From: an uncultured Spirochaetota bacterium
GTDB taxonomy: Bacteria > Spirochaetota > Spirochaetia > SZUA-6 > Fen-1364
DNA length: 64,000 bases
Reading direction: 5' to 3'
NCBI GenBank assembly: GCA_963768665.1
Contig: CAVYIU010000009.1
Span: 579,333-643,332, forward strand
The notes beneath the pieces are model-generated. The model saw only the letters and a list, made by a program, of their open reading frames with translations, was not told the origin of the DNA and did no database searches. The translations under genes were made by a program, and so were the position numbers. Positions 38,089 to 63,634 of this stretch are shown piece by piece; position 1 is the stretch's first letter, and each line of letters opens with the position of its first letter.

Positions 38089-38159
38089 ACGCATGCTCCT
38101 TGCACTGGCAATGAATCTCGCACGCTTTCAGCGAGATGGGATTGCCGAAATCACAAAAA

Positions 38160-38188: not shown

Positions 38189-38305
38189 CGGCGGAGGCCG
38201 TCCTGAGCACCCGGCGGGCTCGCGCGCCGCCGCGGCAGCCCCGGGCTGCTATCCCCCGATCCGGAAGAGCCGCGTCGAGGATGTTCCCGCTGCGCTGCGC
38301 CGGCG

Positions 38306-40262: not shown

Positions 40263-40264
40263 TT

Positions 40265-40785: not shown

Positions 40786-43007
40786 GCCTGGCTCCGCCTT
40801 CCGCGGACGAGCTTCGGGTACTCGATCCGCGTATGGAAGTACCCTTCCAGGATGTGGACGAAGCTCTTGCGGATGAGCTCCAGGTCACGCAGGGTGAGGA
40901 TCGAGTCGCCCAGCTCTCCCGAGGTGAACTTCTCCATGATCATGTCGTGCACGAAGGGCTCCAGGCGCGGCCTCCGTCGGCCTCTTCAGGGTGCGCGACG
41001 CGGCCTCCACCGTGTCGGCGAGCATGAGCACCGCGGCCTCCTTGGTCTGGGGCCGCACACCCGGGTAGGAGTAGTCATCGCGCGAGAGACGGGGGTTTTT
41101 CCCCTCTTTCACGGCGCGGTGGTAGAAGTACGTGATGAGGCCCCGCCATGGTGCTGCGCGATGATGTCGATGATCGCCTGCGGGAGGTTCAGCTCGTGCG
41201 CCTTCTCGATCCCGATGCGCACGTGGCTCTTGATGACGGCGACCGAGAGACTGGGGCGCATGTCATCGTGCTTGTTGTACGCCTTCTGGTTCTCCACGAA
41301 GTAGTCGGCCTGGTCGACCTTGCCGATGTCGTGGTAGTAGCGCGCTCACCCGGGCGAGAAGCGCGTTGGCGCCGATGGCCTCGCAGGCGGTCTCGGCGAG
41401 GTTCGCCACGCTGATGGAGTGGGTATAGGTGCCGGGCGCCTGGGAGAGCATCCGTTTGAAGATCGGCGAGTTCAGGTCCGAGAGCTCCATGAGCTTGAAC
41501 CGGGTGGGCGCGTTCAGGAGAAGCTCGAAGATCGGGAGGAAGCCCAGGGTGAGGATGCCGCAGAGAAAGCCGTTGGCGAGTCCCCCGACCACCATGGCCA
41601 GCACCATGCCGCGGCGCGTCGTTGGTGAGAAGACCGAGGAGCGCCAGGATCAGCGCATCCACCAGGGCGAGGAGCAGCCCTGCCCTGACAAGGTCGATAC
41701 GCTTCTGCGCCTCCAGGACGACCGCGGTCGCTGCCATGCCGCTGAGAAACGCGAAGAGAAAACCCTGCACGCCCATGGACGTCAGGAGCAGCAAAGCGAG
41801 GGAGACCACGAGAGAGAAGAAGACCCCGACGGGCGTGGAGATCAGGATGGCGACGAAGCATCGCCATGGCGCTGGTCGGGATGACCACCGCTGCCGGTAT
41901 CCAGTCAGGAAGGGCAACGAAGCGGACCACCAGGGCGCTGCAGAGGATGTGGCCGAGTCCCATTCCCAGCACCAGGAAGACCTGGGCCCGGCGCAGCGAA
42001 GGCCCGGCGCTTCGAAGCGTCAGGAGGTAGATGGCCGCCGAGAAAACCACGAGGAGAAACAGGATGCTGCCGAAGACGCGGTTCAGATCGACCGTGCGGC
42101 TGTAGGCGCCGAGGGACCTGATCCTCTGCGACGCGGCCTCCGAGATGATGTCCCCGCGGCGCACGAGGACCTGGCCGCGGGAAAGCTTCTCCGTGACGGG
42201 AACGACCTCGGCACGGGCGCGGTTGCGGTGCACCAGCGTCGTCTCGGCGTCGTAGAAGGCGTTGTCCGCCGCGAAGGCGACGACGAGGAACGCGGCCACG
42301 CGGCGCTCGGCGTCGCCAAGGGCCCCTTCCCGCACTCGCCCGTCGGCCCACGAGGCGAGGGAGTCCGTGGTGAGCACCTGGTCGAGGGGAACCTGCTCCG
42401 ACTGGACGCGCCCGTCGACCATGCTGCGCAGCTCCACGGCGCCAGCCCGCTCGGCCTCCTCGCGGTGGGCAATGAGATCCACCACGCCCCGCCCGAGCGC
42501 TCCGTCAAGCAGCCCGCGGCCGCGGTCCAGCGAGGCTGCGGGAAGCCGGGAGTTGAGGAGGAGATGCAGGTCCTGGCGGGTGACCCTGTCGGGGAAATCG
42601 ACCTGGACGGACTGGAAAATCCTGTCTTCCGAGGCTTCCTGGCGGACCTGCCGGAGAATCGACTGGGTGAACCGGTCGTAAGAGGCGAGCGTCGTCGAGG
42701 TGACCACCGGGTCCAGGGTGAACACCGGGGGAACGAGGTCGGCCTGGGCATCTCTCTTCAGCTCCGTCGAGGTCTCGTCCACGTACTGGAAGTCCCGCTC
42801 GACGACGAAGTCCTTGTCCGCGACCGACCCCGGGAGCCAGCCGTCCGTGCCGCGGAGGGAAAAGACCCGAGACTGGGTCGTCAGCAGGACCAGCACGCAT
42901 GCCGTCACGAACGCGCCGGCCGTGGCAATGGCGATCCATTTCTCGAGGCGCAGCCGCTGGTAGAGCTCCGCCGCGCGCGCGACGGAGGGGAAGCGGCTAT
43001 TCTTCAT
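40782..43007 (-). CDS. 7TM-receptor HD-domain phosphohydrolase (PgpH/YqfF-like) (>=5 frameshifts in 3' half)
   Basis: The 5' ~1.1 kb is intact (MKNSRFPSVARAAELYQRL.. extracellular domain). It is followed by 7 TM helices over ORFs 41514-43007, 41189-41917 and 41263-41607. HD domain: GTYTHSISVANLAE, YYHDIGK, IIAQHHG, MLADTVEAASR. It has the classical phoH-HD-ybeY operon position. Confidence 0.8.
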
Positions 43008-43956
43008 GCGCGGTTTCGTAGGCGTGCACGATCTTTCTCACGAGGGGGTTTCTCACGACGTCACGCTCCTCGAAAAAGGTGAAGCGTATTTCGCGGATCG
43101 GGGTGAGGATCGGGATGACGGTCAGGAGCCCCGAATCGGACTTTCGGGGAAGGTCGATCTGCGTGATGTCCCCGGTGACGACCGTGCGCGAGTTCTCACC
43201 GATGCGGGTGAGGAACATCTTCATCTGCTCCCGGGTGGTGTTCTGCGCCTCGTCGAGGATGATGAATGCCCCCGAGAGCGTCCGACCACGCATGTAGGCA
43301 AGGGGCGCGATCTCGATGGCCCCGCTCTCTTCCATCCGGCGGAACATCTCCATGGGAATGAGCGTCTCGATGGCATCATAGAGCGGGCGCAGATAGGGAT
43401 GGATCTTCTGGGAAAGGTCGCCGGGGAGGTACCCGAGGCTCTCGCCTGCCTCCACGACAGGCCGGGTCAGGATCAGCTTGCGCCTGTTCTGTCCGAGCAC
43501 CTGGCGGAGTGCCTGTGCGATGGCGAGGAATGTCTTCCCGGTTCCCGCGGGACCCACCCCGAAGACGATTTCCGAGCTCTCGATCGCCTCGAGATAGACG
43601 GCCTGGTTGTAGGTCCTCGGGTAGACTTTTTTCAGGCCGTTGGGGATGACGACATGGCTGCGCTTGAGGATGTCGGCCTTCTCATCCTCTCCCGCGACGA
43701 GGGAGCCGTGGATGCTGCGGATGAGGTCCGGACCGGGGAGCTGGCCGAGGCGTATATGGTCCTCCAGCTGCTGGAGAAGGCGCGTGAAAGTCTTCTGAAG
43801 GGTGTCGTCGGCCGAATCGAGGAAAATCTCGTTGCCGCGCGAAAAGACGCGGGCTCCCAGGAGCTCCTCCACCACCTTCAGGTTGCTGTCGTTCACGCCG
43901 CAGATTTCCGGCAGGATGGTCTGGTCGCTCACGACGACCGTCAGCGGTTTTGCCAT
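42997..43956 (-). CDS. phoH: PhoH-like ATPase (YbeZ)
   Basis: Intact 319-aa ORF. Walker A GVGPAGTGKTF and Walker B FIILDEAQN. ..VVTGDITQIDLP. Confidence 0.95.
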   Translation of the reverse strand: MAKPLTVVVSDQTILPEICGVNDSNLKVVEELLGARVFSRGNEIFLDSADDTLQKTFTRLLQQLEDHIRLGQLPGPDLIRSIHGSLVAGEDEKADILKRSHVVIPNGLKKVYPRTYNQAVYLEAIESSEIVFGVGPAGTGKTFLAIAQALRQVLGQNRRKLILTRPVVEAGESLGYLPGDLSQKIHPYLRPLYDAIETLIPMEMFRRMEESGAIEIAPLAYMRGRTLSGAFIILDEAQNTTREQMKMFLTRIGENSRTVVTGDITQIDLPRKSDSGLLTVIPILTPIREIRFTFFEERDVVRNPLVRKIVHAYETAHEE

Positions 43957-44008
43957 TCAACTCCCGTCCGCATCGTAGTAGAAACATCCGGCAGCGTCAA
44001 TTCAGGTC

Positions 44009-47000
44009 TCATCGCAGGGTGACTCCCGTGTACGTGCCCTGGATATTGCTTTTCACCTCGGGCACAGCGTTCCATTGCACGAGGATCGAGAATGTCGGTG
44101 TCCATATGAACTCCTGCCTCCCATCAGCCGGGTTGGTGCGAAGCTGGGGAGATCCCTGGTATTGGACGTTGAGGTCCCAGTCGGGGAAATGCTGGGTCGC
44201 GCTCAGGGACAGGGTCTTGATCTTGAATCCCGACGTCTGGCGGGCTGCCGTATTGAAGAAGTCGAATGAGTTGGCGAGATCCTGAAGGGGGTTTACCCAC
44301 GCTTCACCGACCGCATTCGCCCAACCGGGGATATACCGGTACGTTGTGCTGTTGGTCGAAAGAGAGCTGAACGTAAGGTCCAGCGCCTTGAATATGTTGA
44401 GGTTGAGCGCGAGCGAGAAATCGAAGAGGTTGTTCGTGAAGTTCTGCAGGTTCAGGGCCCAATGCGTCTTCAAAGACAGGTCCATCTTGACCCGGTCCTT
44501 CCAGAACCACCGGGGATTGCTGGCTGTTTCATAGCCCAGTTTCGCCGTGTAGGGCAGGAGCCCAAGGGTTCCCCCGGGAACCAGGTTTCCAAGCCCGTCA
44601 ACCGGGAGCATCCACTGGCCGACGAAGCTCCCTGAGAACGGGCCGGCCTGAATGGTCGAGGTTGCGCGCTGCAGCGTCGCGCTCGCGATGTCGTACTGCA
44701 GTTCCTCCCCCCCTGAGAAACCGTTTCCAAAATCGAACCCAAGGCTGCCGATGACCGGCTGGTACACCACCCCGCCGCTGGCGGGCTGCGACAGCCCTGC
44801 CTGGAGCTTTGCCCTGAGCGGGCCGACACCCGCGGCCGCCGAGCCGCTCAACGTCGGCGCGAGGGGAGGCAGCTGTGCGGCAAGGGAAAAAGTGTCCGTC
44901 GTCGAAGGGAGATTCACGCCCAGCGATGCAGTCAGCGAATGCTCCGCTATCGTCCCGGGATTCCACGCCAGCACCGGCGCCACGAAGGCGGGTGTCGCCG
45001 TGGACACCTGGTCCCAGGCGAGCTGGTAGACGTTGACGCCAAGCCGGTAGAGAAGCGTGGACGAGGAAAGGGCAGTCAGGCCGAGAAACGGCCGTACCGT
45101 GGTCTGCAGGGTTGAGCGGAGGTTCAAGTGATCCTGCTGGAGGTCCTGTGTGATCAACGACTGCCAGTCCGCGGATCCCGCTTCGCTCTGCGAAGGGTCC
45201 AACCTGTCCCGCCACAGCGTGTCCGTGGTGAGCCCGAGACTGATGTCAGCAAGCCTGTCCCACAGGGAAGCCGCGGCGGTGAGGCTCGTTGTGCCGCCCG
45301 CCTCCAGCGTCCGGTAGAGGATGCCGTAGTCGACCGCTTCGAGGCTCGTCCAGTTCGTCGTGTCGAAGGTGTGTTCGAGCGTGGTGTGCGGCTGAACCTG
45401 GTAAGAGATCTCGAGAGTCGAAGCGCCGCCCGCCGATGGTGCAGGGAGGTCAGGCTGCGGCGTCGGTATCCGGATGGGGACGCGGACCGCGGCTGCGGCG
45501 GCGGGCTTTCGCTGGGGAGGGGCGAGCGGGAAGCGAACGCCCTTCCCGGGGTCAGGGGACGGAGAGGGCGCGGGCGCAGTCGAGGGGACGGCCGCGGCCG
45601 GCGGTGGAGCCGTGGCCACGGTCGCCGCGGGATTCGCGGGCGCAGGCAGCGGGGCGGCAGCGGGAACGGCGGCCGGACGGCGGGGCGGCAACCGCAGGGG
45701 CTCCGGAAGTGGCAGCAGCAGGCGCTGCCGCGGAGGTCGAAGCCGTGCCGGCCTTCGGCCCGGCCTGTGGAGAGGCAGCCGGCGCGACGGACTTGCTGGC
45801 CGTGGCCGGAAGCTTCAGGAGGTCACCGGAGAGTGAAAACGTTATGTTGGGAGCCGTGATGCTCGTCGGGAAGTAGAACGAGCTCCCCGGGTCGTATTGC
45901 TGGACGAAATTGAGGGCGCTCGTTGCCGGCGTATAGCTTTGCCATGCCATGTGCGCTCCGATGACGGGAAAGCTGAGGCTCTGGGCGTAGGGCGAATTGA
46001 TCAGCCGGGAAAAATCCAGGCGCCCCGAGAGGTCCCACGAGAGGTTGGTCTGCGCGGGTATGGTCGTTGTGGCAGTTGTCGGTGAAGCGAGGTTGGCGAG
46101 GATACCGGCCTCAGAGCGGTTGTAGAAGTCGCTCGGGAACGACCGGGTTGGAGTAGTACTGGAACGCGCCGTTGAGGGCGTAGGGGCCGCCGGCGACGTT
46201 CACCGTGCCGTCAACGCCGTAGCGGAACGGCACCGTGAGTCCGAACAGTGACGAGTCGTTGGATACGGATTGGCCCAGCTCGTACCCCGGGACTTCCACC
46301 GGCAGGTAAGGGGTGTACAGTCCCCCGGTCACCGGATCCTGAAAAATGTCGCGGGAGAAGGCGATACCCGTGCGGAAAGTGCCGAACGACGCGAAGTTCC
46401 CTGCCACTCCCCCGTACACGCCCAGCCTCGAGTAGACGTCAAGCAGGACCTTCAGGGTGTCCTTGCTCTCCGCCTTCGTCGGGAGGGACGGCACCTTCTT
46501 GAGAAAGAGGCCATCCGGCTCCAGCTTGTACCCTTCGCTTCCGGCGCTCGAGAGCTGGAGAAACGAGAACGGGGCGTCCTGCGCGGGCTTGCGGCCGAGC
46601 AGGTAGGTCGTCGTCTGCAGGTAGGAGCCCACCCGGCTCTGGTACCCGACGTTCGGGTTGAACATGAACTCTTCCCCTGGCCAGAAGAATCCCGGGAGGT
46701 AGAGCACCGGGACATTGCCCAGCATGAGAAGGGCATTCTGCGCGGCCCACTCGCCAGGGGCCAGGAGCCAGGCCGTCGATGCCTGGATTGAAAACAGCGG
46801 GTTCTCGGGCGTCGTCGAGGTCGTGATGATCCCCTTCTCCAATATCACCGTGTCGTTGGTGAGCCGGGTGATCGTCCGACCCTCGAAGGTGTACGGCACG
46901 TCCTTCCCGCTCCGGTTCATGACCCGCGACGTCTTCCCGTCGTAGAAAACCGCCTGAGAGGAGTCCAGGTCGAATGCAAGACTGTCCCCTGTGAACGTGT

Positions 47001-47540
47001 CGGTCTGCCCCCCGTGGGTGAGCGTGTAGGTGACATTGCCCACCGCGCTGACCGTGCGCCGGGTCTGGTTGTACGTGATGGATGCGGCGTTGATCACCTG
47101 CGTGCTGTCGTTCCCCGTGTCCTTGATCTCCAGGACGACGTCCCCGCGGAGCTCGAGGTACTTCTCCTTCGACGCGTCATCCGTGCGGTAGGCGGACTCC
47201 CGCGCCGACTTGATGGTGACCGTCTTCACGCCCGCCTTCGGGGCCGACGGCGGCAGCGCCATCCCGAAATGCGCTGCCAGCCGCGCCTGCAGGTCGGGTC
47301 GCGCGCCGGCGTCATCCAGGCCGAGCTGGAGGCACCAGGCGACCAGCTCGTAGTAGCTTGCCGTGGCGATATCCTGCGGGAGCGAGGAAGAGAGGAGCTC
47401 GTCGGAGGTTTTCGGGGCAACGGGCGGGGCTGCCGGGGCAGCAGGCGTTGCAGCCGCGGCGGGCGCGGGGGATTGCGCAGCCTGCTGGGCGCCGGCGGTG
47501 CCCGCGGAGAGAAGGAAAAGGAGCGCCAGGAGCGCCGCGA

Positions 47541-47544
<4 letters not shown>
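44009..47544 (-). CDS. lptD: Very large LptD/OstA-like outer-membrane protein (~1,178 aa; >=3 frameshifts at ~46110, ~45950, ~45690)
   Basis: Signal peptide MIAALLALLFLLSAGTAGAQQ. OstA-like N-terminal beta-jellyroll (YLELRGDVVLEIKDTGNDSTQVINAASITYNQTRRTVSAVGNVTYTL..GDSLAFDLDS). A long beta-strand-rich C-terminal region ends ..QGTYTGVTLR*. A Pro/Ala-rich linker lies at ~45480-45800. The family call is by architecture, not alignment. Confidence 0.6.
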
Positions 47545-50362
<2,818 letters not shown>

Positions 50363-50366
<4 letters not shown>

Positions 50367-50659
50367 TTTTTCGTTTTCTTCTCTTCTTTCGCGTCGTCCT
50401 CGGGAGCTTGCCCGCGGTCAGGCCTCCGTCTTGGGGAAGGAGGGAGATCGTCCTCCGACTCGCTCTCCTCCCGGGGCGGCTTCGCGGGCGCCTTCCTTGC
50501 CGCTCCCCGCCCGGCGGCCGGGCGCGCGTGAACGGGCCTGCGCACCGGGGATCGAGCCGAGGCCACGAAGAAGACGAGGGGCAGGAGGAACATGAGCAGC
50601 AGGCACGAGGCGATCACTTGCCACGACGAGAGGATGTGGAGGAACTGGCCGGATTCCAT
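50363..50659 (-). CDS. Small membrane protein with acidic/basic tail, unknown function
   Basis: Intact 98-aa ORF with one TM ([19 protein letters not shown]). The stop overlaps the uvrA start. Confidence 0.4.
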
Positions 50660-50734
50660 CGCGCAATACTAACGTCGCGCCGGTGCGCTTTCAAGCCTCG
50701 CCGCGCGCAGCGTGCACGCCCCGCGGCGCCACGC

Positions 50735-51046
50735 TCACGACTTCAGTGTCACGATCGTCTTTCCGAATCCGCCTTCTTCCGGCGCAGAGAAGCGGAAGTC
50801 GCTCACGGCCTCAAGCCCGCGGAGGTAAGCGTGCACCGCCGTGCGAAGCCTGCCTTCTCCCTTGCCGTGCACAATGGCAAACTCGTGCAGGCCATGGAGC
50901 AGGGCGCTGTCGAGCTGTTTCTCCACCATGCGCATCGCCTCCTCGACCCGCATGCCGAGGATGTGCAGCTCCAGGACAGGAGGATCGACGGGCCCGGCCT
51001 GCGTGAAGCTGACGGAGAGGGGCGACGCCGGGTGAGCCCTCCGCAT
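50735..51046 (-). CDS. mutS2: Smr (small MutS-related) nuclease domain. Probably the 3' end of mutS2 whose 5' ~2 kb is missing at the junction; a stand-alone Smr protein cannot be excluded.
   Basis: ELHILGMRVEEAMRMVEKQLDSALLHGLHEFAIVHGKGEGRLRTAVHAYLRGLEAVSDFRFSAPEEGGFGKTIVTLKS matches the Smr pattern (LDLRG.R.EEA / HGKG.G.LR). No MutS ATPase region lies upstream. Confidence 0.7.
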   Translation of the reverse strand: MRRAHPASPLSVSFTQAGPVDPPVLELHILGMRVEEAMRMVEKQLDSALLHGLHEFAIVHGKGEGRLRTAVHAYLRGLEAVSDFRFSAPEEGGFGKTIVTLKS

Positions 51047-51191
51047 TCGCCGGCGGATACGGTGAAGCTGCGTTGCTCCAGGAGGTTGGGCCAGCCGGTG
51101 CAGGAATCACTGGTTGTCCTCCACGATCAGCAAAAGATCGCTCGCTGGGTAGCTCTCCTATTGATTTGGCGACGTCGTTCACTGACCGCAT
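51041..51191 (-). pseudogene. regR: 5' fragment (~50 codons) of a RegR/RegA/ActR-type response regulator, truncated at the lineage junction, with one frameshift and an in-frame TGA
   Basis: ATG 51191 lies 18 nt after the regS stop. MRSVNDVAKSIGELPSE / DLLLIVEDNQ*FLHRLAQ / LEQRSFTVSAGE parallels the recalled RegR start (..SLLIVEDDKPFLERL..ME.RGF.V). The receiver domain stops being recognisable at ~51045. Confidence 0.65.
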
Positions 51192-51209
51192 CCACGCTGT
51201 TGCCCTTGC

Positions 51210-52635
51210 TCAATTGCAGTTATCCCTTAACACCAAGAGATAGGTACGTTTCGACTTTACCCCCAGAATCGGCGCCTGGGAGGTTAACGGCCGCTCGAAC
51301 TCGTTGCGGGGCCAGCGCACCGTGATCATGGCGCCAGCGTCCGGGCGCCGAGCGGTTCTCGAAGCTGAGCGTGGCGCCGGAGCGCTCGAGCAGGGTCTTG
51401 GCGATGAAAAAGCCCAAGCCCGAGTCCGAGACCGGCGTCTCGTCGTCGTTGCGTCGGATCGCGCCGGCGGCTGGTGACATAAGGCTCGCCGATGCGGTCC
51501 ATGATGTCCGGCGCAAAGCCCGGGCCGTCGTCGCCGATGGTCACCTCGACGGTCGTCGTCGTTCCACTGCGCGCCGACCACCACGCGTTCGCGGGCGAAG
51601 TCGACGGCATTTTCCAACAGATTGCCGAGGCCGTAGAGGATCGCCGGATTGCGCGCGCCGACCGGCTCGGCGCTGCGCGTCGGGCGGCACGGTCACGTCG
51701 ATGGCGACGCCGAAATTGCGATGCGGCGCCACCACCTCCTCGATCAGCGCCGACAGCGGCGTGCGGTCGAACGGCTCGCCGCTCGCCGACAATTCGGTGA
51801 GCTTGGCCAGGATATCGCGGCAGCGCGTGCGCCTGCTCGCGCAGCAGCCGCACGTCGTCGCCATGCGGCGCGTCGGCGGCATCGCGTTCTCCAGTTCCTT
51901 GGCGATCACCGAGATGGTCGACAGCGGCGTGCCGAGCTCGTGCGCGGCGGCGGCGGCCAGTCCGTCGAGCTGCGAGAGATGCTGCTCGCGCGCCAGCACC
52001 AGTTCGGTGGCGGCCAGCGCGTCGGCGAGCTGGCGCGATTCCTCGGTGATCTGCCAGGCGTAGACGCCGATGAAGCCGATCGCGAGCAGGATCGAGAGCC
52101 AGACGCCGATCATGTAGATCGGCGGCAGTTGCAGCGGATCGTCGTTGTCCCAGGGCAGCGGATAATGCGCGAACACCAGCACGGTCGCGCAGGCCACCGC
52201 GAAGGCGCCGAGCATCAGCGTGAAGCGCGGCGGCAGCGCGGTCGCCGACAGCAGCACCGGGCCGAGGAACAGGAAGGCGAACGGGTTCTGCAGTCCGCCG
52301 GTCAGGAACAGCAGCACCGCCAGTTCGACGATGTCGAAGGCGAGCAGCCAGGCGGCGCGGTCGGGCTCCAGCCGCTGCGTCATGTGGAAGCGCAGGCGCA
52401 GCGCAATGTTGAGCCAGGCCGACAGCGCGATCACGGCGAGGCAGGCCCAGATCGGCAGCTTGAAATCGAGCCCGAAATGGACCACCAGCACGGCGGTGGT
52501 CTGGCCGATGATGGCGAGCCAGCGCAGCCGCACCAGCGTGTCGAGACGCACATTGCGGCGCGGATGATGTCTGGCTGAGGCCGAGCGGAAGGCATGGGCG
52601 GCAGTGTAACGCTGCGCCGGGCCGCGTTCAAACAT
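51210..52635 (-). CDS. regS: Redox-sensing histidine kinase RegS/RegB/PrrB family (>=4 frameshifts in kinase half)
   Basis: Six TM helices including the conserved quinone-site heptapeptide GGLQNPF. H-box [16 protein letters not shown] boxes: [45 protein letters not shown]. Start taken at MFERGPAQ (52635). Confidence 0.8.
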
Positions 52636-52702
52636 GGCGGATGCCGCCGAAACGTGCAGGGCTTGCGCTTCGCGCGGCGCGAGCGTCACATCTTGCCTCG
52701 CA

Positions 52703-53471
52703 ATGGACGCGCAGTACACCTCAGCCATTGCCGTCGATCGCCTGGTCAAGCTCTACAAGGGCGCGGCGCGCGGTCGACGGCATTTCGTTTCGCCTGCCGC
52801 CCGGCTCGATCACCGGGCTGCTCGGCGGCAACGGCGCCGGCAAGACCACCACCATCGCCATGATCATGGGCTTGGTCACGCCGACCTCCGGCACGCGTCG
52901 CGCGTGCTGGGCGCGCAGATGCCGAGAGAGCGCTACCGCGTCCTGCACCGGATGAATTTCGAAAGCCCCTATGTCGACATGCCGATGCGGCTGACGGTGC
53001 GGCAGAACCTGTCGGTGTTCGCCCAGCTTTATGCGGTCGCCGATATCGAGGAACGCATCGCCGAGTCTCGCCGCCGAACTCGATCTCACCGAGTTCCTCG
53101 ACCGGCCGACCGGCAAGCTGTCGGCCGGGCAGAAGACCCGCGTCTCGCTCGCCAAGGCGCTGCTCAACCGGCCGGAAGTGCTGCTGCTCGACGAGCCGAC
53201 GGCTTCGCTCGATCCCGACACCGCCGACTGGGTGCGCGGCCGGCTCGAGCGCTATCGCATCGAGCACGGCGCGACCGTGCTGCTCGCCTCGCACAACATG
53301 ACCGAGGTCGAGCGGCTGTGCGAGCGCGTCATCATCATGAAGAAGGGCCGCATCGAGGACGACGACACGCCGCGAGCGGCTGCTCGCCCGCTACGGCCGC
53401 GCAGACGCTGGAAGAGGTGTTCCTCGACGTCGCGCGCGGCCGCGGCACAGCATCGCGAGGCCGCGCAATGA
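52703..53471 (+). CDS. ABC transporter ATP-binding protein (ABC-2 exporter type) (>=4 frameshifts)
   Basis: [20 protein letters not shown], Walker [14 protein letters not shown], signature LSAGQKTRV, Walker [12 protein letters not shown] and H-loop LLASHNM. The stop overlaps the permease start (ATGA). Confidence 0.85.
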
Positions 53472-54287
53472 ACGGCGGCGACGCCGGCATGAACTTTTCG
53501 CTCAATCGCGTCTCCGCCATGGTGCGGCGCTATTGGTATCTGCTGCGCTCGTCGTGGCCGCGCATCCTCGACCTGATCTATTGGCCGACCGTGCAGATGC
53601 TGATGTGGGGCTTCCTGCAGCTTTACGTCTCGCAGCAACGGCGGCTTGTTCGCGCGCGCCGGCGGCGTTTTCATCGGCGCGGTGCTGCTGTGGGACATTC
53701 TGTTCCGCGGCCAGCTCGGATTTTCAATTTCGTTTCTCGAGGAAATGTACGCGCACAATCTCGGCAACCTGATGATGTCGCCGTTGCGGCCGGTCGAATT
53801 CATCGCCGCGCTGATGATCATGAGCATGGTGCGGCTGTCGATCGGCATGGTGCCGGTGAGCTTCCTCGCCATCGCGTTCTTCGGCTTCAATCTGTGGTCG
53901 CTGGGGTTCGCGCTCGCGGCCTTCTTCGTCAATTTGATTTTGACCAGCTGGTCGATCGGCATCTTCGTCGCCGGCCTGCTGTTGCGGAACGGCATAGGCG
54001 CGGAGAGTCTGGCCTGGACCATCATGTTCTTGTTCTTGCCGCTCACCTGCGTCTATTACCCGGTGGCAGTGTTGCCCGGCTTCCTGCAGTACGTGGCTTG
54101 GTCGCTGCCGCCGACCTACGTTTTCGAAGGCATGCGCGCCCTGCTGATCGACCATGTGTTTCGCGCCGACCTGATGGTTGAAGCGTTTATCTTCAATCTG
54201 ATTCTCTTCGCAGCTGCGTCGCTGGCCTTTTTGAAGCTTTTGCAGAGCGCGCGCGTTCAGGGCTCGCTGCTGCAGACTGGTGAATAG
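53468..54287 (+). CDS. ABC-2 type transporter permease (1 frameshift ~53640)
   Basis: [49 protein letters not shown].. joins the 213-aa ORF 53646-54287, which carries 5 further TM helices. Confidence 0.8.
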
Positions 54288-54373
54288 TCTGTAAAACCCC
54301 TTGTCATTACGTGATTTTTAGACAGTTCCTGTCTATAAGGCTGAGCATTAGGACATCTACGTATGTTGACCTC

Positions 54374-55799
54374 ATGACGGAAAAGCGACACTCTGCTGCG
54401 GTGCAGCAAGGGCCGGGGAACGAAGAAGAAGCAACGCCGATTGGCGAATTCGACGGAGCAGCGCGTCTGCCCGGCGACGCCGCTGGTTTGCTCGCGACTC
54501 CGTTATACTGGCTTTATGAGATGGGTCACGCTGCGCTCGATCCGGCGCGCGCCTTCGCCGACGCAACGCGGCTGTTCTATCGCAACCCGGCCAATCCGAT
54601 CGCGCACACCACCTTCGGCAAGTCGATGGCCGCAAGCCTGGAAGTGTTCGAGCGCGTGACGCGCCGTTACGGCCGTCCGGAGTGGCAGATCGAGTCCACC
54701 GTTGTTGGCGCCGAACGCGTGCCGGTCCACATCAACACGGTGTGGGAGCGTCCGTTCTGCCGGCTGTTGCATTTCGAACGCGCCTTCGATCGCGCGCCGC
54801 GCCGCCCGCAACCCAAGAATTCTGCTCGTGGCACCGATGTCGGGTCACTACGCGACCTTGTTGCGCGGTACGGTCGAGGCCTTCCTGCCCAACCATGACG
54901 TCTACATCACCGACTGGCAGAGCGCGCGCACGGTGCCGCTCGCAGAAGGTCGCTTCGATCTCGACGATTACATCGAATACATCATCTCGATGCTCCACAT
55001 GCTCGGCGGCGATGCGCATGTGGTCGCCGTGTGCCAGCCTTCGGTGCCGGTGATGGCGGCGGTGTCGATAATGGAGGCCGACAAGGACCCGTACGTACCG
55101 CATTCAATGGTTCTGATGGGCGGGCCGATCGACACCCGCATCCACTCCAACGCGGTCAACAAGCTTGCCGAATCGCGCGGGCTCGAATGGTTCCACAATC
55201 ACGTCATCACCAAGGTGCCGTTCCCGCATCCGGGTTTCATGCGCGACGTCTATCCGGGGTTCCTGCAGCTGCATGGCTTCATCAGCATGAACCTTGATCG
55301 CCACATCGACGCACACCACAGTCTGTTCATGCATCTGGTCAAAGGCGACGGCGATTCGGCGCAGAAGCATCGCGAGTTCTACGACGAATATCTCGCGGTC
55401 ATGGATTTGTCCGCCGAGTTCTATTTGCAGACTGTCGACACGGTGTTCATCAAGCATTTGCTGCCGAAGGGTGAGATGACCTATCGCGGCCGGCCGGTCG
55501 ATCCGGCGCAAATCAAGCGCGTGGCCTTGATGACGGTCGAAGGCGAGTTTGACGATATTTCCGCGGTCGGGCAGACCGAGGCGTCGCATCGGCTGTGCGC
55601 GAATATTCCGGCCGAGAACAAGGCGCATTACCTGCAGCCGGGCGTCGGCCATTACGGGGTGTTCAACGGCTCGCGCTTCCGCGCCGAAATCGCGCCGCGT
55701 ATTTCCGATTTCGTGCTGTCGCACAACAGCCGGCGCAGTCACCACGGCACCGGCGCCGCGCATCTCGCCGTCGTCAAGCCGGCAACCGTCAAGCACTGA
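54374..55799 (+). CDS. phaZ: Intracellular polyhydroxyalkanoate (PHB) depolymerase PhaZ (1 frameshift ~54820)
   Basis: ~474 aa reconstructed: LYWLYEMGHAALDPARAFADATRLFYRNPANP.., ILLVAPMSGHYATLLRGTVEAFLPNHDVYITDW, VVAVCQPSVPV, MVLMGGPIDTR, YPGFLQLHGFISMN, GHYGVFNG. This is the typical alphaproteobacterial intracellular depolymerase family. Confidence 0.8.
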
Positions 55800-55857
55800 T
55801 CTCGCGCGCACGCGCCCATTTGTGCCACACTGACCCGGAACCGATTCTGGGTTGACG

Positions 55858-56619
55858 ATGTCACTCCCGCTGCGCGCGCTGCTGTTCCGCCGGACAGCCG
55901 AGCCGACCACGATCAGCATCGCCTTCGATCGCGAGGTCTATCTGGTGCGCGTGCGCCGCCACGCGCAGGCGCGTCGCTACACGTTGCGCGTCCATGCCGC
56001 CACCCGCGAGATCGTGCTGACGATGCCGCCGCGCGGCAGCCTGAAGCAGGCGCGCGAATTCGCCGAAAAGCACGGCGGCTGGATCGCGGCGCGGCTCAAA
56101 TGTCTGCCGCAGTCCGCGCCCTTTGCCGACGGCACGCTGCTGCCGCTGCGCGGAACCCATCACCGCATCGTGCATCGGCGTGACGCGCGTGGGACCGTGT
56201 GGACCGAGGGCGAAGGTGAGGAAAGGCTGCTGTGCGTTGCCGGCCAAGCGCCGCACGTGCCGCGCCGGATGCGCGATTTCCTCAAACGCGAGGCCAAGCG
56301 CGACCTCGAGGCGGCCAGCCGCCGCGCGGCCGAAGCGCTCGCCGTCAGGATCAAGCGCGTATCGATCCGCGATCAATCGAGCCGCTGGGGGTCCTGCTCG
56401 ACCACCGGCGTGTTGTCCTATTCGTGGCGACTGATCCTGGCGCCCCCGTTTGTCCTGGACTATCTCGCGGTCCATGAGGTCGCCCATCTGATCGAGATGA
56501 ACCACAGTCGCGCCTTTTGGCGGCTGGTCGAACGCATCTGCCCGGACATGGATAAAGCGAAGGCCTGGCTCGATGCGCATGGCGCCGAGTTGCATCGCTA
56601 CGGCATGCAGGACGCTTGA
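55858..56619 (+). CDS. YgjP/DUF45 (M48-like) zinc metallopeptidase
   Basis: Intact. HExxH in LAVHEVAHLIEMNHSRAFW and SRWGSCS upstream. Start ATG 55858 (TTG 55852 is also possible). Confidence 0.8.
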   Translation: MSLPLRALLFRRTAEPTTISIAFDREVYLVRVRRHAQARRYTLRVHAATREIVLTMPPRGSLKQAREFAEKHGGWIAARLKCLPQSAPFADGTLLPLRGTHHRIVHRRDARGTVWTEGEGEERLLCVAGQAPHVPRRMRDFLKREAKRDLEAASRRAAEALAVRIKRVSIRDQSSRWGSCSTTGVLSYSWRLILAPPFVLDYLAVHEVAHLIEMNHSRAFWRLVERICPDMDKAKAWLDAHGAELHRYGMQDA

Positions 56620-57902
56620 CTGAATCGGTGGCGTTGCGGCGCCCGATGAGCTACGCCCGCCAGGTCTTATACGCCTGGAAATTCAGCCGCATGTTTCGCC
56701 CCGGTAATTTCGCGCTCACCGCATTGCTGGCGGCCATGACGGCGATCGGGCCGCTCACCACCGACATGTACCTGCCGTCGCTGCCGGACATCGCGCACAA
56801 GCTCGACGCCTCCACGGCGCAAGTGCAGCTCACCATCTCGTCCTACCTGATCGGCTTCGCATTCGGGCAGATCGTTTATGGTCCGGTGTCCGACCGGCAC
56901 GGACGCAAACCCGTCTTGATCGGCGCGGTCGCGCTGTATTGCGTGGCAACGCTCGCCTGCGCGCTGTCGACGTCGATCGAGATGCTGATCATCGGGCGCT
57001 TCGTCCAGGCGCTCGGCGGTTCCGGCGGCATCGTGCTGGCGCGCGCCATGGTGCGTGACCTGTATTCCGGCGCGCGCGCCGGGCGGGAGTTGTCGTTGAT
57101 CGGGGCGGTGATGGCGCTGGCGCCGGTGCTGGCGCCGTTGCTCGGCGGCGTGCTGCAGACCGGCTTCGGCTGGCGCTCGGTGTTTTTTACCCTTGCGACA
57201 GTGGGACTGGTCGGCGCCGCCACCGTGATCCCATTGATGCCGGAAACCCTGAGCCAGCGTGCGACCGAGCCGGTGTCGCTGCCGAGTATGCTCCGGTCCT
57301 ATCGCATCGTGGCGCGCAACCCGGCCTATCTCGCCTATCTCGGCCTCGCCTCGACCAGCTTTGCAGGGCTATTCGCCTGGATTTCCGGCTCGTCCTTTGT
57401 GCTGCAGTATCTTTACGGCCTCACGCCGTTCCAGTTTGGCGTCGCCTTTGCGGTCGGCTCGGTCGGCTACATGATCGGCACCACTTGGGCGGCGCGGCTG
57501 GTGATGCACCACGGCATCGACACGACGCTCGGCATCGGCAGCGCGGCGATGGCGGTCGGTGGCCTCGGCATGATGCTGGCGATTGTGCTTGGTTTGACCT
57601 CGTCCGCCTCGATCGTATTACCGATGGCGGTCTATCTCGGCGGCATGGGCATGGTGCTGCCGCAGGCGCTCGCCGGCGCCATGACGCCGTTCCCGGAGCG
57701 CGCCGGTGCGGCTTCGGCGCTGCTCGGCTTCATCCAGCAGACCGCGTCGGCTCTGAGCGGCGTGATTGTCGGCATACTGCTCGGCCGCAGCGCCTGGCCG
57801 CTGGTCGGCGCGGTGGCGGCGATGGGGTGCGCTTCACTGCTGCTGTGGGTTTCGACGCGCGCCATTCGCGCGCACGCAAGACAACAACTAACGCCCGAAT
57901 AG
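56616..57902 (+). CDS. Bcr/CflA family MFS multidrug efflux transporter
   Basis: Intact 428-aa ORF with 12 predicted TM helices. MFS motif A GPVSDRHGRKPVL. Alternative start ATG 56646. Confidence 0.8.
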   Translation: MTESVALRRPMSYARQVLYAWKFSRMFRPGNFALTALLAAMTAIGPLTTDMYLPSLPDIAHKLDASTAQVQLTISSYLIGFAFGQIVYGPVSDRHGRKPVLIGAVALYCVATLACALSTSIEMLIIGRFVQALGGSGGIVLARAMVRDLYSGARAGRELSLIGAVMALAPVLAPLLGGVLQTGFGWRSVFFTLATVGLVGAATVIPLMPETLSQRATEPVSLPSMLRSYRIVARNPAYLAYLGLASTSFAGLFAWISGSSFVLQYLYGLTPFQFGVAFAVGSVGYMIGTTWAARLVMHHGIDTTLGIGSAAMAVGGLGMMLAIVLGLTSSASIVLPMAVYLGGMGMVLPQALAGAMTPFPERAGAASALLGFIQQTASALSGVIVGILLGRSAWPLVGAVAAMGCASLLLWVSTRAIRAHARQQLTPE

Positions 57903-60023
57903 TTTGTCGACCAACCAGGCATCGAGGCTGGCGCTGTTGCGGGATGCCGGCGCGCTGGCGCTGGTGCCGATCGCAGCGGGCGGGATGGGCGCCTGGCCGA
58001 CGGTCGATCGTTCCGGCCCCGGCGAATTGCCGCTGAACAGGTTGGTAAACAGGCCGCCGCTGCTCGTGCTCGGCAATGCCGCAACCGGCACGCCCTGATG
58101 CGCGTCGCGCATCACCCGGCTCCAGATTTCGGTCGGCAGGCTGCCACCGGTGACCTTCTTGGTCGGTGTGCCGTCGTCGTTGCCGAGCCAGACGCCGGTG
58201 ACCAGCTTCGAGGTGTAGCCGATGAACCAGGCGTCGCGGAAATCCTGCGACGTGCCGGTCTTGCCGGCCGCCGGCCAGCCGGGCAGCGTCGCCTTGTGGG
58301 CGGTGCCGATGGTCAGCGTCTCCTGCATCATCGTGTTCATCATGTCGACGTAACGCGCTTCGATGATGCGGCCGAGCTGTTGCTCGTTGCGGGCGTAGAG
58401 CACTTTGCCGTTCTCGTCCTTGATGCTTTCGATCACATGCGGGACAACCGCGTAGCCGCCGTTGGCGAAGGGCGCGTAGGCGCCGACCAGTTCGAGCACC
58501 GAGACTTCCGAGGTTCCGAGCGCGATCGAGGCGTTCGGTTCGAGCAGCGAGGAAATGCCGAGCCGGTGCGCCGTGCGGATCACCGCCATGGGCGTGAATT
58601 CCATGGTCAGCCGCACCGACACCGTATTGAGTGACATCGCCAGCGCCTTGGTCAGCGTGACTGGCCCCAAATATTCGCGTCCGTAGTTCTCCGGCTGCCA
58701 GTTTTTGATCTTGATCGGCCTGTCCTCGCGGACGGTGTCGGGCGTGAGCCCGTGCTCGATCGCGGTGAGGTAGACGAAGGCCTTGAAGGCCGAACCCGGC
58801 TGGCGCTTGGCCGCGACCGCGCGATTGAACTGGCTGTCGGCATAATTGCGGCCGCCGATCAGCGCGCGGACCGCACCGTCCGGCGTCATCGCGACCACCG
58901 CGCCTTGGCTGACACCGTTTTTATCGCCCTTTTGCGTCAGCTCGTCGGTGAGCGCGCGCTCCGCACTCACCTGTATCGCCGAGTCGATCGTGGTCTGCAC
59001 GACGATATCTTCTTCGACATGGCCGAGCACGTCGTTGATGGCATCCATGACCCAGTCGGCGACGTAGTTGACCGAGCCGGTGTTGGTTTGCGCGACGATC
59101 TTCGGGGGCTTGGCCAGCGCGACCCGTTCGTTGCTCTCGTTGATGAAATGCAGCTCGGTCATCGCGGCCAGCACGATTTTGGCGCGCTGCTCGGCGGCGT
59201 CGAAGTCGCGCGTCGGCGCCAGACGCGTCGGCGACTTCACCAGCCCGGCCAGCATCGCGGCTTCGGCGACGCCGATCTGCCGGGCGGACTTGCCGAAATA
59301 ATGCAGCGAGGCCTGCTCGATGCCGTAGGCGCCGGATCCGAAATAAACGCGGTTGAGATAGAGCTCCAGAATCTGCGTCTTGGAGAATTTGCGCTCCAGC
59401 CACAGCGCCAGCATCGCCTCCTGCAGCTTGCGCGTCAGGGTGCGCTCTTGGGTCAGAAACAGATTCTTGGCGAGCTGCTGCGTGATGGTGGAGCCGCCTT
59501 GGCTCACCCCGCGATGCAGAATATTGGCGATCAGCGCGCGGCCGATGCCGAGCGGATCGACGCCATAATGCTGGTAGAAGCGTCGATCCTCGATGGCGAC
59601 GAAAGCGCGTGGAACGTAAGCCGGCATCTCCTTGAGCAACAACGGCGCGCCGGCGAGGTCGCCACGGCGCGCCAGTGCGCGGCCGTCCATGTCGACGATC
59701 TGGATCGACGGCGGACGCTTGGGAATTTCCAGCGACTGGATCGGCGGCAAATGCGCGCCGACATAGGCAACGGTGCCGATGCCGCCGATCGCCAGCCACA
59801 ACCCGAGCACCAGGCTCCAGTAGGCCAGCCGGCCGAGTATCGAACGTCGCTTGCCGCCGCCACCACTCTTGGATTTGCGTTTGCGCGGCTTGCGCCGCCG
59901 CGGCGGCGGACTGGAGGCCGGCGCGGCGCGGTCATCCGCGGCCACGCGCAGCTCCGGGCCGCCATCGAACACCGGCTCGCGGCGTCCGTCCGATTGTCCC
60001 CGTCCCGCCATGAAGCGACCCAA
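57888..60023 (-). CDS. mrcA: Penicillin-binding protein 1A (bifunctional glycosyltransferase/transpeptidase)
   Basis: Intact 711-aa ORF. GT51 motifs IEDRRFYQHYGVD, GGSTITQQLAKN and RKLQE. Transpeptidase motifs SAFK (SxxK), SLN and KTGTS. Confidence 0.92.
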   Translation of the reverse strand: MGRFMAGRGQSDGRREPVFDGGPELRVAADDRAAPASSPPPRRRKPRKRKSKSGGGGKRRSILGRLAYWSLVLGLWLAIGGIGTVAYVGAHLPPIQSLEIPKRPPSIQIVDMDGRALARRGDLAGAPLLLKEMPAYVPRAFVAIEDRRFYQHYGVDPLGIGRALIANILHRGVSQGGSTITQQLAKNLFLTQERTLTRKLQEAMLALWLERKFSKTQILELYLNRVYFGSGAYGIEQASLHYFGKSARQIGVAEAAMLAGLVKSPTRLAPTRDFDAAEQRAKIVLAAMTELHFINESNERVALAKPPKIVAQTNTGSVNYVADWVMDAINDVLGHVEEDIVVQTTIDSAIQVSAERALTDELTQKGDKNGVSQGAVVAMTPDGAVRALIGGRNYADSQFNRAVAAKRQPGSAFKAFVYLTAIEHGLTPDTVREDRPIKIKNWQPENYGREYLGPVTLTKALAMSLNTVSVRLTMEFTPMAVIRTAHRLGISSLLEPNASIALGTSEVSVLELVGAYAPFANGGYAVVPHVIESIKDENGKVLYARNEQQLGRIIEARYVDMMNTMMQETLTIGTAHKATLPGWPAAGKTGTSQDFRDAWFIGYTSKLVTGVWLGNDDGTPTKKVTGGSLPTEIWSRVMRDAHQGVPVAALPSTSSGGLFTNLFSGNSPGPERSTVGQAPIPPAAIGTSASAPASRNSASLDAWLVDKLFGR

Positions 60024-60231
60024 TGGCCGGCAGACGTCCGCCGGTCCCCAAACCGCACGCTAAGAGGGCCGGTTTAAGGGCTCGTTAAGCGGGGATTGGC
60101 GAGTAAATTCGGGGCCTTGCAGTGCGTCGCGATAGCCGTTGCGACAGGTCAATGCGCATCCGAATTATTTTCGAAACAATATCAAACAATTCGCTGCATT
60201 GGCCGGCGCACTTCTAATCTCTGCAAGACGA

Positions 60232-60902
60232 TGATCGTTGCCAAGGTACCTAGTAACAGCCTTAGCCGCCGTGCCGTTTGTGGCGGAGTGTGCATCCTGT
60301 TGGCCGGCTGCGCGAGCGCGCCGCAAAGTCTATTTTCACGCGCTCCGTCAAACGCTGATCCCTATGCATCGATCTACGGCCCCATCATGGATGGATCGAA
60401 TGCCATCCCGGCGCTCGATCTCGACCTGGCGGCCAATCAAGACTTGCTCCGCCAGGAGGTGACATATCCTGCGCGGTATGGCCCGGGAACTATCGTCGTG
60501 AGCATCTCTGAACGGCGTCTCTATCTCGTGCGAGCCGGTGGGCGAGCATTGCGCTATGCCGTCGGCGTCGGCCGCGAGCAGGCGCTTAATTTCCGCGGTT
60601 CAGCCGTCGTTGGGCGCAAGGCGGAGTGGCCGCGATGGATTCCCACCGCCGATATGATCAACCGGATGCCGAACTACGCCGCTTATGCGGGCGGCATGCC
60701 CGGTGGTCTCGAGAACCCGCTCGGCGCGCGGGCGCTCTATCTTTATGTCGGCGACCGCGACAGCTACTTCCGAATCCACGGCACCAATGAGCCGGCGACC
60801 ATCGGCAGCGCGGTTTCTAGCGGCTGCATCCGTATGTTCAATCAAGACGTCATCGATCTTTATAACCGCGTTCCCGTCGGTGCACCGGTGGTCGTGCTTT
60901 AG
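60232..60902 (+). CDS. L,D-transpeptidase (YkuD domain) lipoprotein
   Basis: Lipobox VCGGVCILLAGC. Catalytic motif HGTNEPATIGSAVSSGCIRM. Start taken at ATG 60232 within ORF 60096-60902. Confidence 0.85.
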
Positions 60903-60939
60903 CTCTTTGCGCGGTCGACTGCCGATAATGGAACCAACG

Positions 60940-61373
60940 TCAGTGCATGCGAGTCCAGATTTGAGTTTGGCCCAAAGTGGGGAGAAGAACGTAGGCGCGT
61001 ACGTGCAATGTGCCGTCGCCCTGGATTGTCATCAGGGCCTGATAATCCACGCCGTCGTCGGGATTGTAAATTTTACCGTCCCTCCACGTACCGTCGCCGG
61101 CGCTGCGCAGACCTCTGAGTACCGTGAGCCCCAGGAGCGGTCGTGTTTTCAGCGCGGGATTCTTATTCTTTAAGTCGACCAGGGCACACCCTGAGCGTCG
61201 TTGGGCCATTTGAACCAAACGATTTTCCCGCACATTCGGTCGCCGCAGGGAGCGATCGCCACCTGGATGCGCTTGTTCGCGTGCAGCCAGACGCCAACTG
61301 GCGTCGCGCTTTGTGCGCCGGCTGCCGTTACGGCAAGCAGCGCGAAGGTCAGAGCATATGCAAATCGACGCAT
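60940..61373 (-). CDS. DUF2147 domain periplasmic protein (1 frameshift ~61180)
   Basis: Signal MRRFAYALTFALLAVTAAGAQS. PVGVWLHANKRIQVAIAPCGDRMCGKIVW.. joins ..DLKNKNPALKTRPLLGLTVLRGLRSAGDGTWRDGKIYNPDDGVDYQALMTIQGDGTLHVRAY. Confidence 0.7.
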
Positions 61374-61598
61374 AAGCGTAAACTTCTTGCGAAGTCTTGA
61401 CCCGAAATTCGCCAAAAGCGGCGCGTAGATAGCATTTTCGTACAGGCCGCGAAAGTCACTCGGCGTCGTCCGGACACTTCCGAAACGGGCAACGTTTTTT
61501 GACTCATCTTAATGCACGTTATGCCAATTCTATATCATTTAGTATCTCTCATGTCGGCGCGAGCATCAGTTCACTGCTCCAGCGGCGCGAAGCAACCA

Positions 61599-61989: not shown

Positions 61990-62003
61990 TTGTTGATCGC
62001 CGA

Positions 62004-63618: not shown

Positions 63619-63634
63619 GTCGCAACGCCTAGGT

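Follow-up and report, generated by a model that had tools for sequence, protein, structure and literature searches.

A probable assembly chimera joins truncated mutS2 and regR genes of two bacterial phyla in a 654-kb metagenome contig

Can the DNA on the two sides of ~51,040 in this spirochaete-assigned contig belong to a single replicon? We analysed the whole 64,000-nucleotide stretch, referred to here as the window, after an earlier note had proposed a switch of lineage at this point with a gene cut on each side. Synteny, domain searches and composition all bore out that proposal. We show that the two flanks come from two phyla, that the collinearity of each with its own lineage extends as far as the breakpoint, and that a gene is cut on either side of it. 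On the evidence of the sequence, the join is very probably an assembly artefact, that is, an inter-phylum chimera lying inside one public metagenome contig of 654,021 bp.

Gene content and composition of the two flanks

Marker genes, synteny and homogeneous tetranucleotides identify the left block (1..51029) as the chromosome of a Treponema-like spirochaete with ~65% G+C. Its genes comprise ppdK, cfpA, a vWA gene, a gene for a pallilysin-like adhesin, a V-ATPase operon, nusB, ybeY/7TMR-HD/phoH, a gene for a protein of 1111 aa, uvrA and the tail of mutS2. The four on which the earlier note had based its spirochaetal assignment (cfpA, the V-type ATPase, ppdK and vWA) were all matched by profile searches: CfpA was recognised as an NCBIfam equivalog with 1162 bits, the pallilysin-related adhesin reached 298 bits against its NCBIfam model, and V-ATPase A, B and I were likewise matched. 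Using blastn, positions 40,590-51,029 were found to be syntenic with two spirochaete contigs (L001 and L002), and the MutS2 relatives of L002 carry the names Spirochaetia, Treponema or Rectinemataceae. The last complete large gene of this block is uvrA (47541..50366, minus strand), whose intact product of 941 aa aligns gap-free over residues 1-941 to the UvrA of L001 with 84% identity. Beyond the point equivalent to 51,029, the left relatives carry the body of mutS2 and then rsgA.

The right block (51048..64000), as judged from synteny and PCA, belongs to the chromosome of a Pseudolabrys/Undibacter-like soil alphaproteobacterium (Hyphomicrobiales) and keeps its native gene order. It runs on to the last position, 64,000, and the window thus contains one block boundary. 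The block carries the regR remnant, regS, genes for an ABC ATPase and permease, phaZ, a ygjP-like gene, an MFS efflux gene, the gene for PBP1A, ykuD, a DUF2147 gene, an rlpA-like gene and a ppdK. This side had been called Bradyrhizobiaceae-type; the alphaproteobacterial gene content was recovered but the family label was off, as the relatives are Pseudolabrys/Undibacter-like (NCBI Xanthobacteraceae, Hyphomicrobiales). The quinone box claimed for RegS is present as GGLQNPF, and the PhaZ, YkuD, DUF2147 and RlpA-like assignments were matched by the domains PHB_depo_C, YkuD, DUF2147 and DPBB/RlpA-like. RegS shares 83-96% protein identity with 80 loci named Pseudolabrys, Undibacter, Hyphomicrobiales or MFD alphaproteobacterial MAGs. 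Three relatives (L040, L046 and L029) are syntenic across 51,281-63,994 at 78-89% nucleotide identity, and the closest, L163, is 89.8% identical over 51,051-60,089 (9.1 kb). Past the breakpoint, these right relatives carry the rest of regR, followed by an MmcB-like gene and mtnA. The right block is an ordinary housekeeping chromosome segment in the gene order of its donor. Separate searches of the two flanks, which the earlier note had recommended, therefore returned spirochaetes on the left and Hyphomicrobiales on the right.

The tetranucleotide comparison proposed in the same note also revealed a switch at the join. The first principal component of tetranucleotide composition (44% of the variance) split 15/15 left chunks from 4/4 right chunks, and the correlation between left and right was 0.80, compared to 0.976-0.987 within the left block. 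A Markov likelihood-ratio change point, scored on sequence held out of training, peaked at 51,159 on a plateau spanning 51,050-51,200. The switch in composition is far beyond chance. The right block keeps the full tetranucleotide signature of its donor, with no sign of amelioration. As both partners have nearly equal G+C (~65%), simple GC screens overlook the join, and it is tetranucleotides and gene taxonomy that expose it.

The join and the two truncated genes

The breakpoint can be placed only within 51,030-51,047, a junction zone of 18 nt assignable to either lineage, where left homology ends and right homology begins without a spacer. The position given earlier (~51,040/51,045) falls within this zone but is finer than the zone allows. 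In blastn alignments, homology to the left relative L001 stops at 51,029 and homology to the right relative L163 starts at 51,051, the latter being traceable to ~51,036-51,048 in alignments A2/A4. The genes around the join are uvrA, the mutS2 tail, regR, regS and the ABC transporter genes.

The earlier note had reported no transposase, integrase, tRNA, direct repeat or spacer at the join, and our scans found none either. Within the 18-nt zone there is no spacer, tRNA, mobile-element gene, flanking repeat or adapter. A tRNA scan of the 64-kb window found none, an Rfam scan of the window matched no family, and domain searches detected no mobile-element domains in the genes flanking the join. Repeats around the join are short, imperfect and at chance level, and microhomology at the join is confined to GAAT/ATGCG-type matches of a few bases, again at chance level. 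A search at the join using a Nanopore adapter sequence gave no match. The exact 50-nt junction sequence had 0 matches in 185,579 species genomes and the JGI metagenome contigs; a reference containing both flanks, which the earlier note had suggested looking for, was thus absent from these genome and metagenome collections.

On the spirochaete side, the 3' tail of mutS2 (linker plus Smr domain; 50735..51046, minus strand) forms a 103-aa ORF beginning MRRAHPASPLSVSFTQAGPVDPPVLELHILGMRVEEA..., of which residues 29-102 match Pfam Smr with 79 bits. The suspicion that this Smr tail belonged to mutS2 proved well founded, as the ORF aligns to residues 706-795 of an intact 795-aa MutS2 in another contig (L083) and the ATPase region is missing from the window. 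Only the last ~95 of ~790 codons are kept and ~700 upstream codons are missing. The start codon and first codons of the ORF fall in or beyond the junction zone, and the tail is called as a 103-aa ORF for the sole reason that an ATG happens to fall there. A tblastn search using the MutS2 pieces of L001 found neither a MutS2 body nor a MutS domain V ATPase in the window. Measured against the MutS2 family (TIGR01069), the C-terminal Smr domain is present, and the upstream MutS domain V ATPase and core are absent. Of the MutS2 gene, the window contains no more than a truncated fragment.

On the alphaproteobacterial side, alignment with the regR genes of five relatives (L046, L040, L029, L006 and L163) identified a 5' remnant of regR (51048..51196, minus strand), which encodes a response regulator of the ActR/PrrA/RegA family. 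The first ~50 of ~190 codons are kept and read DLLLIVEDNQ*FLHRLAQ / LLEQRSFTVSAGE on the minus strand from ~51,196 to ~51,045. Three 1-nt insertions and a TGA break the remnant, which is consequently spread over three frames; its length and sequence are as the earlier note described, and the breaks are a correction to that account. Intact regR genes of the relatives match NF033791, the copies of L046 and L163 being complete, while the remnant, with only ~50 codons, falls short of this 173-position model of a complete receiver and C-terminal HTH. The adjacent regS (51210..52635, minus strand), identified by Pfam 6TM_PilS and HisKA, encodes a sensor kinase of the RegB/PrrB/ActS type that bears the GGLQNPF box. 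It is split into at least four frames by 1-nt indels, of which those at 51,336, 51,550, 51,676, 51,826, 51,878 and 52,567 are specific to the window. Its ORF does end at 51,210, as had been noted, but this lies ~50 nt beyond the stop used by relatives. Neither the 103-aa 'Smr protein' nor the 50-codon regR remnant has a function as such; both arose as by-products of the join.

Frameshifts and consensus quality

Frameshifts caused by 1-nt indels occur on both sides of the join, and the assembly is error-prone in the manner of long-read data. In the left block they affect the 1111-aa gene, the 7TMR-HD gene, ppdK and V-ATPase A, and clusters of indel errors are found at 41.1-41.9 kb, far from any join. 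A general rule in which the left is clean and only the right is frameshifted was therefore rejected, although a local asymmetry remains: the 3.5 kb to the left of the join are free of frameshifts, the 2.6 kb to its right contain ~15 one-base insertions, and the next 5.3 kb contain none. Since the same kind of frameshift strikes core spirochaete genes (ppdK, V-ATPase A and 7TMR-HD), the frameshifts are best read as sequencing errors and not as decay. Likewise, substitutions at conserved columns showed no excess, and the pattern looks technical, unlike gene decay. Consensus quality does differ across the join, which is suggestive of an artefact, but the indel clusters far to the left make this asymmetry weak evidence. 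As regards an origin of the insertions from two stacked strain alleles, gap placement is ambiguous in pairwise alignments.

For both flanks, the closest relatives belong to a single ENA batch with Flye-style names (ERZ25039480, ERZ25039537 and ERZ25039554). Related MFD MAGs were produced by metaFlye with a single Medaka round (PMC12313526). Metagenome assemblers, ONT/Flye among them, are documented to yield chimeric contigs, which are commoner at low coverage (PMC11261854).

Origin of the join

Where did the two sequences become connected? Public records assign both a protein identical to the 103-aa junction-spanning ORF (P0001) and a right-side protein (P0031) to a 654,021-bp contig, which places the join inside one deposited contig. 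As the junction ORF is already in a protein collection, the join predates gene calling, which excludes the scanning pipeline as its origin. Most likely, sequences of a Treponema-like spirochaete and of a Pseudolabrys/Undibacter-like alphaproteobacterium, two organisms that presumably shared one sample, were connected into one, probably via a chimeric long read or via a false overlap where coverage of a contig end was thin. The relatives suggest that the source was a Nanopore/Flye-type assembly.

The locus has much in common with inter-genome chimeric contigs, as known from assembler benchmarks (PMC11261854) and from GUNC-type MAG chimerism: taxon and composition switch abruptly inside one contig, genes are cut without biological junction features, and the source appears to be a long-read assembly of a complex community. 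It differs from them in that the partners belong to different phyla, no common repeat lies at the join, G+C is nearly equal, and the case is known from sequence alone. Chimeric Nanopore reads, formed by ligation or in silico and carried into a consensus, offer a second parallel. Blunt junctions of unrelated molecules at arbitrary intragenic points are characteristic of such reads, and the join here is of the same kind, although it has no adapter remnant and its Nanopore origin is suggested by the relatives only.

If the join is an artefact, it warrants a quality-control flag, as two phyla would be mixed in the 654-kb public contig and in every MAG based on it. False signals of inter-phylum gene transfer would follow, and a RegSR redox system, a PHB depolymerase and a second ppdK would be falsely credited to a spirochaete. 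The 103-aa 'Smr protein' already in protein databases would then be spurious.

The earlier note had left the choice between a chimeric join and an end-to-end placement of two contigs from a contaminated bin. In the latter case, a scaffolder, the depositor or a window-cutting pipeline would have concatenated the contigs after assembly without an N spacer. Both genes are indeed cut as they would be at contig ends, and the consensus of the right flank is poor next to the join, as is typical of contig ends. However, the exact 103-aa ORF and the right-side protein both occur on the 654,021-bp contig, which leaves only a joining by the depositor before submission; this favours a chimeric join over end-to-end contigs, and we regard concatenation as very improbable.

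If real, the join would record a large transfer of housekeeping DNA between phyla, of which documented cases are rare. A soil or sediment spirochaete would recently have taken 13 kb or more of chromosomal DNA from Hyphomicrobiales (regSR, phaZ, PBP1A and ppdK) into mutS2 by illegitimate recombination, inactivating that gene, and the block would now be decaying. The join is, after all, present in the deposited contig, the right block has many interrupted genes, which pseudogenisation could explain, and illegitimate recombination need not, in principle, leave any signature where it joins unrelated DNA. MutS2 is an anti-recombination endonuclease and, speculatively, its loss might favour uptake of foreign DNA. 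Yet the join has no integrase, transposase, tRNA or target-site repeat, the cargo consists of housekeeping genes in exact donor synteny, and the donor tetranucleotide signature is entirely kept. The interruptions also argue against decay: nearly all are +1 insertions clustered in 2.6 kb and followed by 5.3 kb of intact genes, they are not accompanied by substitutions at conserved sites, and the same type occurs in core spirochaete genes. Furthermore, the rsgA-mutS2-uvrA locus is intact in the related spirochaetes L001, L002 and L083, and among the best 120 homologues no MutS2 body lay on a contig of 654,021 bp, although this last point is a weak one. Like genomic islands and other horizontally acquired segments, the right block has a foreign composition and adjoins native sequence; unlike them, it comes without integrase, tRNA or direct repeats, carries housekeeping content in full donor synteny, truncates both boundary genes and sits at a locus that is intact in related genomes. 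We therefore judge a real transfer very improbable and retain the assembly chimera as the preferred reading.

Lastly, the possibility that the Smr ORF is a normal stand-alone small protein, with regR alone truncated, is negligible: several short database homologues (100-172 aa) do exist, some of them on large contigs, but they carry the KOW-like linker of MutS2 (...GKRWVVETETLRLSLLPGELRPA...), which the closest Smr homologues retain. In both L001 and L002, the short Smr ORFs immediately follow MutS_V fragments with matches to TIGR01069 positions 85-258 and 271-589, and these ORFs are thus frameshift pieces of mutS2. The UvrA-based scan of JGI metagenomes returned distant relatives only (at most 72% amino acid identity), of no use for calling indels in the left block; among them was L083, in which an uninterrupted MutS2 of 795 aa (794 bits) occupies the same position in the order rsgA-mutS2-uvrA. 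In all three contigs, the Smr sequence is the tail of mutS2.

Spirochaete and alphaproteobacterial flanks of the join

The earlier note had described a lineage switch at a truncated gene, and this held: a Treponema-like spirochaete block (1-51,029) and a Pseudolabrys/Undibacter-like block (~51,048-64,000) meet at 51,030-51,047, where both mutS2 and regR are cut. The left block was confirmed as spirochaete-type by NCBIfam matches to CfpA (equivalog, 1162 bits against a cut-off of 500), a pallilysin-related adhesin, V-ATPase A, B and I, NusB and ppdK, by a vWA protein (Pfam) adjoining cfpA, and by synteny with L001 (1.03 Mb) and L002 (598 kb), the contigs carrying the closest Smr homologues. Both are collinear with 40,590-51,029 at 67-79% nucleotide identity (YbeY, 7TMR-HD, PhoH, a 1111-aa gene, UvrA, Smr tail), and similarity ends at 51,017 (L002) or 51,029 (L001). 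At 114-11,279, this environmental spirochaete of 65% G+C has ppdK, cfpA, the vWA protein and then the adhesin (NF033751, 298 bits), an arrangement which we take to match Treponema pallidum TP0746-TP0751; that a free-living relative with high G+C encodes a pallilysin-like adhesin may be of interest to those who study treponemes.

With rising coordinates, the minus strand carries an intact uvrA (ORF list; 47541-50366, 941 aa), a 98-aa ORF without a Pfam match (50,363-50,659), the 103-aa ORF of linker and Smr domain (50735-51046; Pfam Smr at residues 29-102, 79 bits), the regR remnant (starting near 51,196 in three-frame translation) and the regS ORF (ORF list; ending at 51,210). The Smr ORF adjoins the regR remnant directly, without a spacer. 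The product of the 98-aa ORF, which separates uvrA from the mutS2 tail, is hydrophobic near its N terminus and ends in a charged tail rich in Pro, Arg and Glu; L001 has an equal gap of ~300 nt there, without a called gene.

Upstream of their Smr piece, L001 and L002 encode fragments matching positions 85-258 and 271-589 of TIGR01069 (endonuclease MutS2). In L083, a metagenome relative at greater distance, the mutS2 that lies between rsgA and uvrA is unbroken (795 aa, 794 bits); the Smr ORF aligns to residues 706-795 of its product. NCBI names homologues of the L002 MutS2 body as Spirochaetia, Treponema or Rectinemataceae; in L002 itself, uvrA and mutS2 are both in pieces. The L001 MutS2 pieces found no match across the whole window, in agreement with the reported lack of a MutS2 ATPase region. 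Given the relatives' MutS2 context and the missing body, the left boundary gene is a mutS2 lacking ~700 codons; a normal stand-alone Smr gene is ruled out by the context in L001, L002 and L083.

On the right, searching the N-terminal part of RegS against 185,579 species genomes gave 80 loci (83-96% amino-acid identity) named Pseudolabrys, Undibacter, Hyphomicrobiales or 'uncultured Alphaproteobacteria MFD…bin'. Separate flank searches thus returned a spirochaete on the left and an alphaproteobacterium on the right, as the earlier note had expected, but its attribution to Bradyrhizobiaceae has to give way to a Pseudolabrys/Undibacter-like partner, Pseudolabrys being placed in the Xanthobacteraceae (NCBI taxonomy). 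The stretch 51,281-63,994 is collinear throughout with such loci at 78-89% nucleotide identity, and the closest relative found, L163 (ENA ERZ25039480 contig_74242), aligns in a single piece over 51,051-60,089 (89.8%). Encoding regS, an ABC ATPase and permease, an intracellular PHB depolymerase, a YgjP-like peptidase, a Bcr/CflA efflux pump, PBP1A, YkuD, DUF2147, a DPBB/RlpA-like protein and a second ppdK, the right block is a Hyphomicrobiales chromosome segment with housekeeping genes of ordinary type.

The regR remnant is legible over three frames only (MRSVNDVAKSIGE / DLLLIVEDNQ*FLHRLAQ / LLEQRSFTVSAGE), with three single-base insertions and one TGA in ~150 nt relative to regR of four related genomes. 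Its loss after ~50 codons had been read correctly: in relatives this ActR/PrrA/RegA-family gene is complete (L163, 191 aa), and next to it come an MmcB-like gene and mtnA. At 51,210-51,265 the regS ORF overruns the relatives' stop codon (…FERPLTFAAP*) by ~50 nt and reads on for further residues, owing to a sequence difference near the native TGA. A 1.9-kb segment of lower G+C (0.55-0.60) at 60,123-62,049, with YkuD, DUF2147 (split across two frames near 61,200) and the DPBB/RlpA-like protein, is missing from the relatives L040 and L046, whose flanks there lie 48 nt apart; it looks like a variable spot within the alphaproteobacterial lineage.

The junction zone

Nucleotide homology to the left lineage can be relied on as far as 51,029, and that to the right lineage from 51,051 onwards, with a trace of the latter reaching ~51,036-51,048. 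The 18 nt at 51,030-51,047 are assignable to either lineage, and the ORF codons M-R-R-A are similar to 'MRPA' of the MutS2 linker as well as to 'ECGG' of regR in a shifted frame. While G+C is equal on both sides (~0.65), the proposed tetranucleotide comparison separated them: 15/15 left and 4/4 right chunks fell on opposite sides of PC1 (44% of variance), and the correlation was 0.80 between left and right versus 0.976-0.987 within the left. A Markov log-likelihood ratio trained on 1-46,000 and 55,001-64,000 turned over, in the held-out stretch between, at 51,050-51,200.

The described absence of mobile-element, tRNA or repeat marks and of a spacer also held, as no spacer or adapter was found at the junction, no tRNA by tRNA scan, no Rfam family, no mobile-element-related neighbouring gene and only short imperfect repeats, as chance predicts. 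Neither the species-representative genomes nor the JGI metagenome contigs contain the 50-nt junction sequence. Two frameshifted ppdK genes of different lineage occupy the window ends (114-2542 and 62,004-~63,600); the join lies away from them, so ppdK similarity did not mediate it.

Origin of the join

A protein 100% identical to the junction ORF, junction-encoded start included, lies on a 654,021-bp contig (NCBI, ENA), and a 100% identical copy of the right-hand YgjP-like protein lies on a contig of equal length, which places the join within a single deposited contig. Of the two origins offered earlier, a chimeric join is thus favoured, and an end-to-end joining of contigs after deposition is ruled out by the identical junction protein. 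The closest relatives of both flanks share one ENA accession run (ERZ25039480, ERZ25039537, ERZ25039554) with Flye-style contig names, and among the right-side relatives are numerous Microflora Danica MAGs, which derive from Nanopore reads, metaFlye assembly and one Medaka round (PMC12313526). We infer that the window shares this Nanopore/metaFlye-type origin.

As the flanks come from two phyla, each keeps its native synteny up to one point, two genes are cut there, the junction bears no features of its own, composition is of donor type, gene content is housekeeping and the join is found nowhere else, it is very probably an assembly artefact, in which a long-read assembly of a complex metagenome misjoined two genomes. 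Metagenome assemblers, including ONT/Flye, are documented to yield chimeric contigs, more of them at low coverage (PMC11261854). That depositors joined two contigs is improbable, and a real transfer by illegitimate recombination marginally more so: we found no positive support for it, and related spirochaetes keep an intact rsgA-mutS2-uvrA locus. The feature is not biological; its value is as a warning on the contig, on any MAG built from it and on a spurious 103-aa 'Smr' protein in databases.

Indel errors along the contig

Both sides carry frameshifts of 1 nt, which on the left affect ppdK (split, 114-2542), V-ATPase A, the 7TMR-HD gene and the 1111-aa gene, and also lie at sites 41,145, 41,340 and 41,857. 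An in-frame fusion links the C-terminal half of V-ATPase A with subunit B at 27364-29742; the 7TMR-HD gene (40,743-43,007) is broken into four pieces, and the 1111-aa gene (44,012-47,412) is spread over three frames. As core spirochaete genes are frameshifted too, the whole contig therefore carries indel errors, roughly 0.5 per kb.

Compared with 65-80 relatives, the right side has 13 window-specific indels of non-multiple-of-three length, 12 of them +1 insertions and all within 51,336-54,817, to which regR adds three further insertions; none occurs at 54,818-60,100, a stretch with four intact genes. Where 95% or more of the relatives agree on a column, the window is not enriched in substitutions (0/612 in 51,000-52,500), and the 3.5 kb left of the join (uvrA and Smr tail) align gap-free. 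At 51,045-53,640, ~15 single-base insertions fall in 2.6 kb, many of them at CG-rich sites (ACG[C]GT and GCG[C]GC, for example); deletions are almost nil and substitutions without excess. An insertion-only profile is unusual as raw long-read error, and the cluster may be an artefact of the polisher, or of a consensus drawn from a few reads whose strains were not identical. Overall, the indels look like a technical effect and not like decaying genes, and they fit a right-hand contig end with thin or heterogeneous coverage; since similar error clusters occur elsewhere, we count this asymmetry as no more than suggestive. Long-read MAGs of this kind often carry frameshift errors, which swell the tally of short 'Smr' and 'MutS_V' database proteins. 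In L046 (MFD02248.bin.2.61, a GTDB species representative), regR at 11,377-11,956 is likewise split into two frames.
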